Positions 2,313 to 56,854 of a stretch of DNA of 64,000 nt are shown here, piece by piece (position 1 is the stretch's first letter; each line of letters begins with the position of its first letter). The notes beneath the pieces were generated by a model. That model ran no database searches, was not told where the DNA came from, and saw only the letters and a program-made list of their open reading frames with translations. Source of the stretch: Escherichia coli (GTDB lineage: Bacteria > Pseudomonadota > Gammaproteobacteria > Enterobacterales > Enterobacteriaceae); the NCBI RefSeq assembly GCF_024502345.1, contig NZ_JALDNN010000001.1; one strand, 5' to 3'. The translations under genes were made by a program, and so were the position numbers.

Positions 2313-2576
2313 ATGAGTAATAAAACACTTGTTAAAAAATCAAATAACTGTGTCGATGCATACGCCGACGCGTTTGGCTACTCTTCGTTTGGTGACGGCT
2401 CTCAGCGCCTAGGTTCAATTTCTTTTTTTCATAATGTAACTGAATGGCCTGTTGATGAAAGTGACGATGTTGAGAACATAAAGTACAACATTGCAACCAT
2501 TAGAATGCCCGAAGAATTGATGCTTAAATTGGCTGACTTCATTCGCGACCAGCATGACAAAGCTAAAACAAACTAA
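2313..2576 (+). CDS. Hypothetical protein (87 aa), prophage cargo gene
   Basis: ORF with GGAAAGG ribosome-binding site 7 nt upstream; AT-rich compared with neighbours; no family recognised. Confidence 0.5.
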   Translation: MSNKTLVKKSNNCVDAYADAFGYSSFGDGSQRLGSISFFHNVTEWPVDESDDVENIKYNIATIRMPEELMLKLADFIRDQHDKAKTN

Positions 2577-2588
2577 TCGTAATTAATT

Positions 2589-3032
2589 ATGAAACACGAT
2601 TATTACGAAGCTCCAAACCTAAATGATAAAATTGCAAAGGCGGCAAAATCATTTTGTTTGCACTCCAGTGCGTCTTCCCAGCTAGCAGGTATATCTGGAA
2701 AAAGATGGGACATGCTACAATCAAGTGGTAGCAGTGGGTCTGGGAGTGATAACATGCCTGAAAAAGTTGCAAAACTGGAGTCCGATGTTGCTCATATCAA
2801 ACGAGACGTTGATGAACTTAAAACAGACGTTAAAGCTATCGACAAAAATATGATAACTATTCTTGCACGTCTGGACTCTATAAAAGAATCCTTAACAAAC
2901 AAGCCATCAAGTGATGCTGTCGATAGAAAGATTTCAGACGCAAAGCTTGCGGTATTGCTTGGTGTTCCAGCAATCATCGCTGCAGGAACAGGACTTTATA
3001 AGCTATCAATGTACTTTTTCTTTAGTGCTTAA
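2589..3032 (+). CDS. XhlA-like coiled-coil protein with C-terminal transmembrane helix
   Basis: C-terminal 92 aa MPEKVAKLESDVAHIKRDVDELKTDVKAIDKNMITILARLDSIKESL...AKLAVLLGVPAIIAAGTGLYKL: heptad-like coiled coil plus one hydrophobic helix, resembling phage hemolysin XhlA. The ATG at 2589 has no ribosome-binding site; the ATG at 2754 has GGGAG 7 nt upstream and may be the true start. Confidence 0.5.
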   Translation: MKHDYYEAPNLNDKIAKAAKSFCLHSSASSQLAGISGKRWDMLQSSGSSGSGSDNMPEKVAKLESDVAHIKRDVDELKTDVKAIDKNMITILARLDSIKESLTNKPSSDAVDRKISDAKLAVLLGVPAIIAAGTGLYKLSMYFFFSA

Positions 3033-3106
3033 GAAAATGCTCGCACCCTTGCATTAGGTAAAGCGATTTTTCATTCCCCATTACCCTCGCTCTTAACCAA
3101 TCATCT

Positions 3107-3136
3107 AAACCCGGCCACCGTGCCGGGTTTTCTTTT
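3107..3136 (+). terminator. Rho-independent terminator after the CI/cargo operon
   Basis: aaaCCCGGC-caccgt-GCCGGGttttctttt: GC stem, 6-nt loop and T-run, just downstream of the 3032 stop. Confidence 0.6.
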
Positions 3137-3261
3137 GCCCTCCCCTCATCACACACCGTTCAAAAAACCACCACGACCTCACTTCAGTTATCGCTATGCG
3201 ATGCAAGTCACAAAATTAATTCTTTTTGCTATCAAACATTTAATATCAAAACACATCAACT

Positions 3262-3308
3262 AATAGCAATAAGTATTGATATCACCAATAGCAATAGCTA
3301 TTATCACC
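3262..3308 (+). promoter_or_regulatory. Second operator set with pL-like promoter
   Basis: AATAGCAAT at 3262-3270; palindrome AATAGC-AATA-GCTATT at 3287-3302; TATCACC direct repeats at 3280-3286 and 3302-3308; TTGATA (3276-3281), 17-nt spacer, TATTAT (3299-3304) on the + strand. Confidence 0.4.
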
Positions 3309-3497
3309 ATATCGCAACAACACAACGATACGGCAACCACCTGATTCACCGTTGCGATGACCGCTTAGATCCGCAGCTTGAATTTCAGCAGGCTTCGGGG
3401 AGTGCGAGGGATGAAACGGACGCGTGAACGTCGGTGTGACCAGCTGAAATCAACTCAACATTTCATACCTTAGTCGCTTCAACGAGGCGGCTTAGTT

Positions 3498-3788
3498 ATG
3501 ACAACCGGCGGCCATCCACCGCCTGAATACGCGCAGAAGTCTTTATATGTTCAGCAGCCCAGCTTACGGGCAGGAGTTTTTATGGTTCATCAACATTACG
3601 GAACGCAGACCGTTAATCGCGGTGCGGTCATGCCAGGAATGCTGGTCAAACGCAAAGATGGTACCTGGACTGCATCAGCTAATTTACGCGGACGACTTTA
3701 TCTGCATCGCGGCATTGAGCGCACTTATACCCGTGACTTGCTCGTGGAAGTTTTTCTCGACGGACGCGGCAACGGTCTGAATCACTAA
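3498..3788 (+). CDS. Hypothetical prophage protein (96 aa)
   Basis: ORF with GAGG about 10 nt upstream; no family recognised; an internal start MVHQHYG at 3582 is also possible. Confidence 0.35.
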   Translation: MTTGGHPPPEYAQKSLYVQQPSLRAGVFMVHQHYGTQTVNRGAVMPGMLVKRKDGTWTASANLRGRLYLHRGIERTYTRDLLVEVFLDGRGNGLNH

Positions 3789-4990: not shown

Positions 4991-5623
4991 ATGAAACCAA
5001 CGTCGGTGATCATTATGGATACTCATCCTATCATCAGAATGTCTATTGAAGTTCTGTTGCAAAAAAACAGTGAATTGCAGATTGTCCTGAAAACGGATGA
5101 TTACCGCATAACCATCGATTATCTCCGAACCCGTCCTGTTGATTTAATCATTATGGATATAGACTTGCCCGGAACAGACGGTTTTACCTTCCTGAAAAGG
5201 ATCAAACAAATCCAGAGCACAGTGAAAGTGTTATTTTTATCATCGAAATCAGAATGCTTTTATGCTGGCAGAGCGATACAAGCTGGTGCTAACGGTTTTG
5301 TCAGTAAATGCAATGATCAGAATAATATTTTTCATGCCGTTCAGATGATCCTCTCCGGATACACGTTTTTTCCCAGCGAAACGCTTAACTATATAAAAAG
5401 CAATAAATGTAGTACGAATAGTTCAACGGTCACTGTGCTATCTAATCGTGAAGTGACCATATTACGTTATCTGGTTAGCGGATTATCTAATAAAGAAATT
5501 GCCGATAAGTTATTACTTAGCAATAAAACAGTTAGTGCGCATAAATCTAATATTTATGGCAAGCTAGGTTTGCATTCAATTGTAGAGCTTATCGACTACG
5601 CCAAATTATACGAATTAATATAA
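4991..5623 (+). CDS. fimZ: Fimbrial response regulator FimZ (LuxR-type)
   Basis: 210 aa from MKPTSVIIMDTHPIIRMSIEVLL...; receiver domain plus C-terminal LuxR HTH. The ORF track's upstream start at 4928 is probably an overcall. Confidence 0.9.
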   Translation: MKPTSVIIMDTHPIIRMSIEVLLQKNSELQIVLKTDDYRITIDYLRTRPVDLIIMDIDLPGTDGFTFLKRIKQIQSTVKVLFLSSKSECFYAGRAIQAGANGFVSKCNDQNNIFHAVQMILSGYTFFPSETLNYIKSNKCSTNSSTVTVLSNREVTILRYLVSGLSNKEIADKLLLSNKTVSAHKSNIYGKLGLHSIVELIDYAKLYELI

Positions 5624-5720
5624 TATTAATTATAATTGATCATAAATATCGCATCCGCTTTCGCCGGTGATGCTGCCAACTTACTGATTTAGTGTATGAT
5701 GGTGTTTTTGAGGTGCTCCA

Positions 5721-52685: not shown

Positions 52686-55190
52686 ATGTCACAAACTATC
52701 GACCTGACCCTGGACGGCCTGTCCTGCGGTCACTGCGTTAAACGCGTGAAAGAAAGTCTCGAACAGCGCCCGGATGTGGAACAAGCGGATGTGTCTATCA
52801 CTGAAGCGCACGTTACCGGGACTGCCAGTGCAGAACAGCTGATCGAAACCATCAAACAAGCGGGTTATGACGCATCTGTAAGCCACCCAAAGGCTAAACC
52901 GCTGGCGGAGTCATCAATCCCGTCGGAAGCACTGACAGCGGTTTCTGAGGCGCTTCCGGCAGCGACCGCCGATGACGATGACAGCCAGCAGTTGCTGCTG
53001 AGCGGCATGAGCTGCGCCAGCTGTGTCACCCGCGTACAAAATGCGCTGCAAAGCGTACCGGGCGTCACTCAGGCACGGGTAAACCTGGCGGAGCGTACTG
53101 CGCTGGTGATGGGCAGTGCCTCCCCACAAGATTTAGTGCAGGCGGTGGAAAAAGCGGGCTACGGCGCGGAAGCGATTGAAGATGACGCTAAACGCCGCGA
53201 GCGCCAGCAAGAAACCGCCGTTGCTACGATGAAGCGCTTCCGCTGGCAGGCAATTGTCGCACTGGCGGTGGGTATCCCGGTGATGGTCTGGGGGATGATT
53301 GGCGATAACATGATGGTCACCGCTGACAACCGCAGCCTGTGGTTAGTTATCGGCCTGATAACCCTGGCGGTGATGGTTTTCGCCGGCGGGCATTTTTACC
53401 GCAGCGCATGGAAAAGCCTGCTGAACGGTGCGGCGACGATGGATACGCTGGTGGCGCTGGGAACGGGTGTGGCGTGGCTCTATTCGATGAGCGTCAACCT
53501 GTGGCCGCAGTGGTTCCCGATGGAAGCGCGGCATCTTTACTATGAAGCCAGTGCGATGATTATCGGTCTGATTAATCTCGGCCATATGCTGGAAGCGCGC
53601 GCACGTCAGCGTTCTTCTAAGGCGCTGGAGAAATTACTCGATTTAACCCCACCGACGGCGCGAGTGGTCACCGCAGAGGGTGAAAAAAGCGTGCCGCTGG
53701 CGGAAGTTCAGCCAGGGATGTTACTGCGCCTGACGACCGGCGATCGCGTGCCGGTAGATGGCGAGATTACCCAGGGCGAAGCATGGCTGGATGAAGCGAT
53801 GCTGACGGGCGAACCAATCCCACAGCAAAAAGGCGAAGGCGAAAGCGTCCATGCCGGGACAGTGGTACAGGACGGTAGCGTGCTATTTCGCGCCAGTGCG
53901 GTTGGCAGCCATACCACGCTGTCACGGATCATTCGCATGGTGCGCCAGGCCCAGAGCAGCAAGCCAGAAATCGGTCAGCTGGCGGATAAAATCTCAGCCG
54001 TATTTGTGCCGGTAGTAGTGGTTATTGCGCTTGTCAGTGCGGCAATCTGGTATTTCTTTGGTCCGGCACCGCAGATTGTCTATACCCTGGTGATTGCCAC
54101 CACGGTGCTGATTATTGCCTGCCCGTGTGCGCTGGGGCTGGCGACGCCGATGTCGATTATTTCCGGCGTCGGGCGGGCGGCTGAGTTTGGCGTGCTGGTG
54201 CGGGACGCTGACGCGCTGCAACGCGCCAGTACACTCGATACCGTCGTGTTCGATAAAACCGGGACGCTGACCGAAGGGAAGCCGCAGGTTGTCGCAGTAA
54301 AAACGTTTGCTGATGTTGACGAAGCGCAGGCATTGCGTCTGGCGGCGGCACTGGAGCAAGGTTCCAGCCATCCGCTGGCACGGGCGATCCTTGATAAAGC
54401 AGGCGATATGCAGCTGCCGCAGGTCAACGGTTTCCGCACATTGCGCGGGCTGGGCGTGAGCGGTGAAGCAGAAGGTCATGCGTTATTGCTGGGTAATCAG
54501 GCGTTGTTAAATGACCAGCAAGTCGATACTAAAGCGATTGAAGCCGATATTTCAGCTCAGGCATCGCAAGGAGCAACGCCTGTGCTGCTGGCGATTGACG
54601 GGAAAGCAGTAGCCCTGCTGGCTGTACGCGATCCGTTGCGTAGTGATAGCGTGGCGGCGCTGCAACGCCTGCATAAAGCGGGATATCGTCTGGTGATGTT
54701 GACCGGGGATAACCCAACCACCGCCAATGCGATCGCCAAAGAAGCAGGGATTGATGAGGTGATAGCCGGCGTGCTGCCGGACGGTAAAGCCGAAGCGATC
54801 AAACGTCTGCAAAGTGAAGGACGTCAGGTGGCAATGGTGGGCGACGGCATTAACGACGCGCCAGCGCTGGCCCAGGCGGATGTCGGTATTGCGATGGGTG
54901 GCGGCAGTGATGTTGCCATTGAAACCGCGGCGATTACCCTGATGCGCCATAGCCTGATGGGTGTTGCGGATGCGCTCGCGATTTCCCGCGCAACGCTGCG
55001 CAACATGAAGCAGAACCTGCTCGGCGCGTTTATCTACAACAGTATCGGTATTCCGGTCGCCGCCGGTATTTTGTGGCCGTTTACTGGAACACTGCTTAAC
55101 CCGGTAGTTGCCGGAGCGGCAATGGCGCTCTCGTCGATTACCGTAGTGAGTAACGCCAACCGGTTGCTGCGGTTTAAACCGAAGGAATAA
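52686..55190 (+). CDS. copA: Cu(I)-exporting P-type ATPase
   Basis: 834 aa; two N-terminal CxxC metal-binding motifs (GLSCGHC, GMSCASC), CPC, DKTGT. Confidence 0.95.
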
Positions 55191-55247
55191 GTATGTCATT
55201 GCGGATGCGCTGCTTTAGGGTGGCGCATCCGTTATAGGGAAATTATT

Positions 55248-55589
55248 CTACGCGACCTTTTTTGCACGCTCTTCACGGCGTGCCAAATATTCAGCCACTG
55301 TTTCAATCCGTCCCAATTCTTCCTGGGTACGCATGTTGTTTTCAACTTCCCAAAGATCAACTGCCGCCTGGAGGTTTAGCCAAAAATCGACTGTGGTATC
55401 AAAAACTTTCGCCAGACGGAATGCCATCTCAGTGGTGAGTTTACGATTGTTATTGATCAGTGCACTGACGCTATTACGATGAACATGCAGCAACTCTGCT
55501 AATTCATTGATTTTCAAATCGAGCGGTTCCAGATATTCATAGAGAAGAATATCTCCGGGTGTCGTCGGTTTTCTTGTTGCCTGTTTCAT
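55248..55589 (-). CDS. ybaQ: HigA-like XRE-family HTH protein (putative antitoxin)
   Basis: 113 aa, MKQATRKPTTPGDILLYEYLEPLDLKINELAELLHVHRNSVSALINNNRKLT... Confidence 0.85.
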   Translation of the reverse strand: MKQATRKPTTPGDILLYEYLEPLDLKINELAELLHVHRNSVSALINNNRKLTTEMAFRLAKVFDTTVDFWLNLQAAVDLWEVENNMRTQEELGRIETVAEYLARREERAKKVA

Positions 55590-55624
55590 AGTTTTACCTT
55601 TCTCGTCAATACGACAGCTATGTT

Positions 55625-55927
55625 TTAGTAGTTGTGTGGGTCTAAAAACAATTCTTCGGCCTTGCCATTAACCCATTTAAATATCAGTCGGTACTGTTTA
55701 TTCACTCTAATGGAGGAATATTCCTGTAATTTCCCGGACAACTCTTCGTATCGGTTCCCCGGAGGGGAGCGTAAATCCCGATGAGAAGTGGCAGCATTAA
55801 TGATGTCCAACTTTCGTGATAACGAGGTATGGATTTCAGCAGGGATCTTTCGATGTGGCGTTGAATGGACAAAAAAATCAGCCAGCCAGGCATCACGAAA
55901 ACTCCTTATATTATTCTTTTGAGCCAT
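55625..55927 (-). CDS. HigB-like RelE/ParE-superfamily toxin candidate
   Basis: 100-aa ORF 35 bp upstream of and co-directional with ybaQ (toxin-first order as in higBA); basic, ...YRLIFKWVNGKAEELFLDPHNY. Confidence 0.55.
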   Translation of the reverse strand: MAQKNNIRSFRDAWLADFFVHSTPHRKIPAEIHTSLSRKLDIINAATSHRDLRSPPGNRYEELSGKLQEYSSIRVNKQYRLIFKWVNGKAEELFLDPHNY

Positions 55928-56059
55928 TCCATTCTCATCTCCTTGTCCATTGTTTAATTATTGTAATGCACACAAGCACTGTGCACAAGTGCGACAATCA
56001 ACTCCATTTGCGCCATCCCTCCCCGCGCGCTAGCATGATATTTCACAAAGGGAGGTCGT

Positions 56060-56854
56060 ATGGATCTGTTGTACCGGGTAAAAACGCTTTGGGCCGCGCT
56101 GCGCGGTAATCATTACACCTGGCCTGCCATCGATATCACCCTTCCCGGCAATCGCCATTTTCATCTGATTGGCAGTATTCATATGGGTAGCCACGATATG
56201 GCTCCCCTGCCCACCCGTTTGCTCAAAAAGCTCAAAAACGCCGATGCGCTGATCGTCGAGGCTGATGTTTCCACCAGCGATACGCCTTTTGCTAATTTGC
56301 CTGCCTGCGAGGCGCTGGAAGAGCGCATTAGCGAGGAGCAACTCCAAAACCTGCAGCATATTAGCCAGGAGATGGGCATTTCTCCCTCACTCTTTTCTAC
56401 CCAACCGCTGTGGCAAATCGCGATGGTTCTTCAGGCGACGCAGGCGCAAAAACTGGGGCTGCGGGCAGAATACGGTATCGATTACCAGCTATTGCAGGCG
56501 GCGAAGCAACAACATAAACCCGTGATTGAACTGGAAGGGGCTGAAAACCAGATTGCCATGTTGCTCCAGCTCCCTGACAAAGGACTGGCGCTGCTGGACG
56601 ATACGCTGACCCACTGGCATACCAACGCACGGTTGCTGCAACAAATGATGAGCTGGTGGCTGAATGCACCTCCGCAAAATAATGATATAACGCTGCCCAA
56701 TACGTTCAGTCAGTCGCTGTACGATGTGCTGATGCATCAGCGAAATCTCGCCTGGCGGGATAAACTGTATGCTATGCAGCCAGGGCACTATGTGGTCGCG
56801 GTCGGTGCACTACACCTGTATGGAGAAGGGAATTTGCCGCAAATGTTGCGCTAA
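56060..56854 (+). CDS. ybaP: TraB-family protein
   Basis: 264 aa, MDLLYRVKTLWAALRGNHYTWPAIDITLPGNRHFHLIGSIHMG... Confidence 0.85.
   Translation: MDLLYRVKTLWAALRGNHYTWPAIDITLPGNRHFHLIGSIHMGSHDMAPLPTRLLKKLKNADALIVEADVSTSDTPFANLPACEALEERISEEQLQNLQHISQEMGISPSLFSTQPLWQIAMVLQATQAQKLGLRAEYGIDYQLLQAAKQQHKPVIELEGAENQIAMLLQLPDKGLALLDDTLTHWHTNARLLQQMMSWWLNAPPQNNDITLPNTFSQSLYDVLMHQRNLAWRDKLYAMQPGHYVVAVGALHLYGEGNLPQMLR

Follow-up and report, generated by a model that had tools for sequence, protein, structure and literature searches.

The window, a 64-kb stretch of Escherichia coli DNA, carries between copA and ybaP a chromosomal two-gene unit, very probably an intact HigB/HigA-class operon that encodes a type II toxin-antitoxin system. 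This is higB-1/ybaQ, in which YbaQ would both repress transcription of the operon and neutralise the toxin. The pair is real and intact, yet it has already been annotated and described and is therefore not new. The gene-essentiality study of Rousset et al., in which this pair was described, later appeared in Nat Microbiol in 2021. What is added here is an explicit operator and its conservation in five genomic contexts, the predicted fold of the toxin, its D-P-H-x-Y C-terminus, and its relatives on phage-plasmids.

The preliminary description of this DNA, which was made from the letters alone, had pointed to a basic open reading frame (ORF) of 100 amino acids that lies 35 bp upstream of ybaQ and in the same direction, in the inverted, toxin-first order typical of higBA modules, and between copA and ybaP. 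The coordinates of the two genes and of their neighbours bear this out in full (Table 1). The ORF starts with ATG, ends at its C-terminus in ...YRLIFKWVNGKAEELFLDPHNY, and has a computed pI of 9.75, while YbaQ is mildly acidic with a computed pI of 5.72. The gene order on the E. coli chromosome is ushA-ybaK-ybaP-[ORF]-ybaQ-copA-glsA, and the E. coli sequence NZ_LR536431.1 matches this region of the window at 100% identity over 901 bp. The toxin sequence is identical to RefSeq protein WP_000057540.1. It had also been proposed to check whether reference genomes annotate the upstream ORF, and indeed RefSeq names it ‘type II toxin-antitoxin system RelE/ParE family toxin’, while RefSeq/PGAP annotates the neighbouring gene as ‘ybaQ: HigA family addiction module antitoxin’.

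Table 1. Coordinates of the genes and sequence elements at the higB-1/ybaQ locus in the window.
Feature	Position	Strand	Description
higB-1	55625..55927	minus	intact toxin gene of the HigB/GraT family, 100 aa; coordinates include the stop codon
ybaQ	55248..55589	minus	predicted HigA-family HTH antitoxin and repressor, 113 aa
toxin/antitoxin spacer	55590..55624	minus	35 bp, with the ybaQ ribosome-binding site AAAGG
ybaP	56060-56854	plus	flanks higB-1/ybaQ
copA	52686-55190	plus	flanks higB-1/ybaQ, convergent with ybaQ
T7 homopolymer run	55871..55877	minus	toxin codons 17-19; intact in the window
candidate YbaQ operator	55968..55992	minus	GCAC-TTGT-GCAC-A-GTGC-TTGT-GTGC, 25 bp; four half-sites arranged symmetrically around the central base
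putative sigma-70 promoter of higB-1/ybaQ	55960..55988	minus	read from the sequence
ybaQ/copA stem-loop	55203..55230	minus	RNA fold -16.2 kcal/mol, z-score -4.3; without a T-run

Previously documented work on other E. coli strains has addressed the same pair. According to Rousset et al. (bioRxiv 10.1101/2020.05.25.114553), higB-1 occurs in phylogroups B2 and F and is missing from most others, including K-12, and phylogroup D has lost both higB-1 and ybaQ. The same authors found ybaQ to be essential only in B2/F strains with an intact higB-1; in strain CFT073, where higB-1 is truncated, ybaQ is non-essential, and CRISPRi knockdown of ybaQ in strain S88 led to a strong induction of higB-1. In genetic terms, the restriction of ybaQ essentiality to strains with an intact toxin is equivalent to the growth-arrest and rescue test suggested in the preliminary description. 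The K-12 YbaQ protein had earlier been classed as a solitary antitoxin by RASTA-Bacteria. The literature that we searched yielded no direct over-expression and rescue test of higB-1/ybaQ. The locus is a clean case of a core-genome antitoxin whose essentiality hinges on a strain-variable toxin, which is relevant for the reading of essentiality screens and for the engineering of B2/F strains: ybaQ cannot be deleted in B2/F strains, but its deletion is possible in Nissle 1917 and CFT073, both of which have a broken toxin.

Family assignment, predicted fold and active site

The view that the ORF encodes a HigB-like toxin, previously based on the gene order and on the C-terminal region of the ORF, is upheld by a Pfam search, in which toxin residues 9-98 matched model positions 2-91 of the 91 positions of PF05015 (HigB-like_toxin) with an E-value of 3.3e-32. 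PHROG 3066 (‘toxin of TA system’) matched the toxin with an E-value of 3e-32. The scores for the RelE/StbE and YoeB models of NCBIfam remained below the respective cut-offs, as expected for a member of the HigB branch. The nearest solved structure by sequence is GraT (6F8S_B; E 4e-15, 44% identity), and the sequence identity to HigB of Proteus vulgaris amounts to 26-29%.

An AlphaFold2 model of the toxin, built on an alignment of 41 sequences, reached a mean pLDDT of 92.2 and a pTM of 0.85. Its predicted secondary structure consists of helices at residues 13-21, 30-45 and 49-53, followed by strands at residues 71-74, 79-86 and 89-97, which is the arrangement of N-terminal helices on an antiparallel sheet that characterises the RelE-type microbial RNase fold. 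When the model was compared with the PDB using Foldseek, the top 14 hits were all chains of P. vulgaris HigB (TM 0.80-0.89, rmsd 1.4-1.9 A, 91-94 aligned columns, probability 1.00), followed by GraT and then by RelE3, YoeB and YafQ; ParE2 appeared with E-values of 0.1-0.5 and a TM of about 0.4. The preliminary description had judged that the C-terminal region of the ORF fits the RelE/ParE fold and had named a lack of RelE-fold conservation in structure-based comparison as a result that would refute its proposal. The predicted fold turned out to be conserved, the best match being P. vulgaris HigB (TM 0.82-0.89), with GraT also among the matches.

P. vulgaris HigB has four critical residues, namely His54, Asp90, Tyr91 and His92 (PMC5027501). 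Alignment showed that two of these four are kept in the window toxin: D90 corresponds to D96 and H92 to H98; HigB R73 is likewise kept, as R80. Both H98 and R80 are invariant among the 41 homologues. At the position of HigB H54 the toxin has a glutamate (E61), as does GraT (E54), which is toxic, and at the position of Y91 it has a proline (P97). A nearly invariant tyrosine (Y100) is located two residues after the histidine, which gives a C-terminal D-P-H-x-Y motif. The clade of the toxin thus has the HigB active site in a conserved form of its own, and the chemistry of the toxin may differ in detail from that of HigB, given the substituted equivalents of H54 and Y91. Of the six residues with which GraT contacts GraA, four (A45, A46, P55 and P56) are the same in the toxin. 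By analogy with its closest characterised relatives, the toxin is most probably an RNase of the RelE superfamily, nearest to GraT and P. vulgaris HigB, that would cleave ribosome-bound mRNA.

The assignment of the HTH protein YbaQ as the partner also held, as it belongs to the HigA antitoxin family by its match to TIGR02607 (‘HigA family addiction module antitoxin’; 105.3 bits versus a cut-off of 47.7, E 1.1e-30). The protein contains an HTH_3 domain, its sequence is identical to that of the crystal structure PDB 2EBY, and its relatives in the PDB include GraA (E 3e-10), HigA of Pseudomonas aeruginosa and P. vulgaris, and VapI. The C-terminus of YbaQ, RAKKVA, has been catalogued as a ClpXP C-motif-2 and employed as a degradation tag, and a KKVA or KKAA terminus is kept among YbaQ homologues. 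Such a degron fits a labile antitoxin; no in vivo half-life of YbaQ was found in the literature searched.

Conserved modules, candidate operator and proposed mechanism

Pairs of a homologous toxin and an antitoxin resembling YbaQ (72-82% identity) occur in five contexts that are unrelated to one another, namely the E. coli locus itself, a Salmonella enterica prophage (locus L003), Citrobacter koseri (L006), Kosakonia (L008) and the phage-plasmid D6 (L012). The pairs of C. koseri and Kosakonia occupy chromosomal sites other than that of E. coli. In S. enterica (L003, positions 5001-5700), a toxin with 81% identity to that of the window and its YbaQ-like partner are located within a P22-like prophage with genes for an integrase and NinX. 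Next to this Salmonella pair, a Tad2-like (anti-Thoeris) protein and a RecA-dependent nuclease are encoded. Close homologues of the toxin, in the identity range of 79-81%, are also borne by plasmids of ~75-95 kb from Salmonella and E. coli. The preliminary description had placed the module away from any mobile element. This applies to the locus in the window, which is chromosomal, but not to the toxin family as a whole, which is mobile, as evidenced by the phage-plasmid, plasmid and prophage copies of 79-81% identity.

Across genera, synonymous differences between the modules are saturated (pS 0.68-1.0), while the non-synonymous differences amount to 0.09-0.18 per site. This combination indicates that both genes are under purifying selection, a conclusion that is qualitative only, because the saturation of synonymous sites precludes a quantification of dN/dS across genera. 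Since this constraint is accompanied by the end-to-end match to PF05015 and the identity to a RefSeq protein, the ORF is not a chance reading frame.

Despite the synonymous saturation, a common operator is shared by all five contexts. In each of them, the toxin ATG is preceded at a distance of 63-72 bp by the pattern GCAC-N4-GCAC-N-GTGC-N4-GTGC, and a TAnnnT hexamer, positioned as a -10 element, begins 3 nt past the operator in 5 out of 5 cases. Within the 64-kb window the operator pattern occurs only once, as compared to 0.02 matches expected by chance. A generic inverted-repeat finder missed it because the arms of the operator are interrupted; it was recovered with a custom scan. Our derivation of the candidate operator from the comparison of five loci is independent of the YbaQ motif defined by ChIP-exo (Gao et al. 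2018). The higB-1 promoter has been reported to bear the YbaQ motif (Rousset et al., bioRxiv 10.1101/2020.05.25.114553). The putative promoter combines a -35-like TTGTGC (55988-55983), located within the operator, with a 17-nt spacer and the -10 hexamer TACAAT (55965-55960); a consensus scan proposed the overlapping alternative TGCACA-17-AATAAT (55985-55957). Since the candidate operator overlaps the -35-like hexamer and the promoter spacer, its occupation should block RNA polymerase. This pseudo-palindrome overlapping the operon promoter, considered together with the derepression upon ybaQ knockdown known from the literature, points to autoregulation by YbaQ, the exact operator being assigned by homology. 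At the other end of the operon, the stem-loop that separates ybaQ from the convergent copA gene may represent a shared terminator at which the operon ends, although a terminator scan did not call it.

In the mechanism that we propose, one promoter would drive expression of the toxin and then of the antitoxin, and an HTH-XRE dimer of YbaQ would bind the four-half-site operator over the -35 region and the spacer, thereby keeping the operon repressed. As judged from homologous systems, YbaQ would also bind the toxin directly and neutralise it, and by analogy with GraTA it may do so by sterically blocking the binding of the toxin to the ribosome rather than through occlusion of the toxin's active site. 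Turnover of YbaQ by ClpXP through the RAKKVA terminus would make neutralisation dependent on continuous synthesis. A drop in the level of YbaQ would then derepress the operon, and free toxin would arrest growth, presumably by cleaving ribosome-bound mRNA as its homologue HigB does.

Distribution in E. coli and alternative readings

Of 5,426 complete E. coli genomes, 1,266 carry the toxin sequence (23%; intact and frameshifted alleles counted together), in each case as a single copy on the chromosome. The ybaQ gene was found in 4,833 of the 5,426 genomes. Accordingly, ~66% of E. coli genomes, K-12 included, have an orphan ybaQ, and ~11% have neither gene. The window carries the less common of the toxin alleles: 175 genomes have a toxin that is at least 99% identical to it and 1,090 genomes one that is 95-99% identical, and it differs by ~2% from the common B2 allele. 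Of the earlier proposal that the module is chromosomally fixed, the single chromosomal site stands, but the module is not fixed in the species, being present in 23% of the genomes and frameshifted in Nissle 1917. The module thus resides at one chromosomal site, yet its presence varies within the species and it undergoes repeated loss.

In Nissle 1917, alignment to the window showed that a 1-bp deletion that shortens T7 to T6 at the run listed in Table 1 frameshifts the toxin gene (L010, positions 601-902), and RefSeq flags this allele as ‘frameshifted’. Matches of 302 bp in other genomes, for example in ATCC 25922 and NC101, probably reflect the same 1-bp deletion, and the T7 run is a slippage-prone path to toxin inactivation. 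In K-12-type and O157-type strains, ~405 bp comprising the operator, the toxin gene and the spacer (window positions 55593-55998) are replaced by ~72 bp (L002, positions 1603-1675). The K-12 state is therefore not a simple deletion of the toxin, as unrelated-looking sequence of ~72 bp stands in place of the ~405 bp. This segment showed no significant similarity in blastn-short searches against the module of the window or against the Salmonella, Citrobacter and Kosakonia cassettes. By eye, the K-12 sequence AGAC-TTGT-TTAA-T-GTGT-TTGT-ATGA matches the operator in both TTGT spacers and lacks the GCAC/GTGC half-sites, a resemblance that is too weak to claim; if this were a true operator remnant, the orphan ybaQ of K-12 may have lost its autorepression. 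In the K-12-type arrangement, REP/BIME-like repeats (GCCGGATAAGGCGTTTACGCCGCATCCGGC units) also account for ~258 bp of the interval from ybaQ to copA (L002, positions 2021-2335). The corresponding region of the window (55191-55247) has no such repeats, and a single hairpin separates the two genes. In E. coli HS-02 (L011, positions 1532-2192), the slot of the toxin is occupied by a divergent ‘hypothetical protein’ of 78 amino acids (89% identity over 145 bp), and ybaQ runs past its normal stop to give a protein of 123 amino acids, which may reflect either a separate allele or a misassembly.

A further possibility is that the pair works as a toxin-antitoxin system with its main role in conflicts between mobile elements, either through abortive infection or phage exclusion, or through YbaQ acting as an anti-addiction factor against the 79-81% identical modules of D6-like phage-plasmids and prophages. 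We regard this as rather doubtful; it would add to the toxin-antitoxin model, with which it is compatible, rather than exclude it. The distribution of close homologues is suggestive in this respect, as they are found in a P22-like Salmonella prophage beside anti-defence and recombination genes, on the phage-plasmid D6, and on the Salmonella and E. coli plasmids of ~75-95 kb; furthermore, the antitoxin of D6 is 75% identical to YbaQ and the D6 operator is the same, and roughly two out of three E. coli genomes keep an orphan ybaQ. Against this, a search of the PADLOC defence models with the toxin and YbaQ returned no match for either protein, and the chromosomal toxin-antitoxin systems of Pseudomonas putida, graTA among them, are reported to confer no clear fitness benefit (PMC7280312 and its preprint). 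The more specific idea that orphan YbaQ is retained as an anti-addiction or immunity factor, which would cross-neutralise the 79-81% identical toxins of D6-like phage-plasmids, plasmids and P22-like prophages and cross-repress their shared operator, is in our judgement unlikely. If it were true, an intact chromosomal pair would likewise hinder the stable carriage of D6-like or prophage elements.

The repeated losses also raise the question of whether the toxin of the window strain is itself a decaying or attenuated remnant, with YbaQ being merely a transcription factor, as it presumably is in K-12. The toxin is absent from ~77% of complete genomes, frameshifted in Nissle 1917 and truncated in CFT073, and two of the catalytic positions of HigB are substituted in it. 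However, the ORF in the window is full length and identical to a RefSeq protein, and the substitutions recur throughout the clade, on which purifying selection acts strongly (pN 0.09-0.18); GraT is toxic despite having Glu at the H54 position. Moreover, ybaQ is needed for viability in strains with intact alleles (Rousset et al.). A remnant is for these reasons very improbable, and an intact higB-1/ybaQ operon remains the preferred reading. Lastly, a ParE-like gyrase poison instead of an mRNA endonuclease, to which the generic RefSeq name ‘RelE/ParE family’ and a weak Pfam ParE_like match (E 0.035, 20 residues) might point, was rejected on the profile and fold rankings as hardly credible, since the full-length profile match is to HigB-like_toxin, HigB and GraT lead the structural neighbours, ahead of the RelE, YoeB and YafQ RNases, with ParE2 at E-values of 0.1-0.5, and the C-terminal His that matches the active-site His92 of HigB/GraT is invariant.

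Comparison with known systems

The higB-1/ybaQ pair described by Rousset et al. has the same locus, genes and gene order as the pair in the window, and nothing essential differs between them.

Among characterised systems, GraT/GraA of P. putida (PDB 6F8S and 6F8H; PMC6393540) resembles the window pair in its toxin-first order, in its HigA-type HTH antitoxin GraA, in the Glu at the position of HigB H54, and in the active-site His at the C-terminus of the toxin. The block RDLRSPPGNR...SIRVN.Q.RL.F is common to GraT and the window toxin. GraA represses via a palindromic operator centred on TAACGTTA (PMC6393540), while the half-sites of the candidate YbaQ operator are GCAC/GTGC. The two systems also differ at the termini of their proteins. 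GraT ends in DYH where the clade of the window toxin has DPHxY, and YbaQ, as compared to GraA, is extended at its C-terminus by ~25 amino acids that include the ClpXP degron. In GraT, disorder extends over the first 22 residues, which serve as a derepressor, whereas the N-terminus of the window toxin is predicted to be ordered (pLDDT 82-95). The toxicity of GraT is conditional, in that it is cold-dependent and requires the disordered N-terminus, and by analogy the toxicity of the window toxin may likewise depend on conditions.

HigB/HigA from the P. vulgaris plasmid Rts1 (PDB 4MCT, 4PX8 and 4YPB; PMC5027501) provides the best structural match of the toxin and belongs to the same Pfam family. 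It shares with the window pair the inverted gene order as well as the conserved C-terminal D and H residues and the equivalent of R73, and as P. vulgaris HigB is a ribosome-dependent mRNase, it serves as the mechanistic model for the window toxin. The differences are that HigBA is plasmid-borne whereas the window pair is chromosomal, and that H54 and Y91 of HigB are replaced by E61 and P97.

The orf70/orf71 module of phage-plasmid D6 (NC_050154.1; L012, positions 2501-3628) has a toxin with 79% and an antitoxin with 75% identity to their counterparts in the window, and it shares the gene order and the operator. Unlike the window pair it is located on a P1-like circular plasmid prophage, amid tail and baseplate genes, where it presumably stabilises the plasmid, and a second small HTH regulator gene (orf72) is located directly downstream of orf71.
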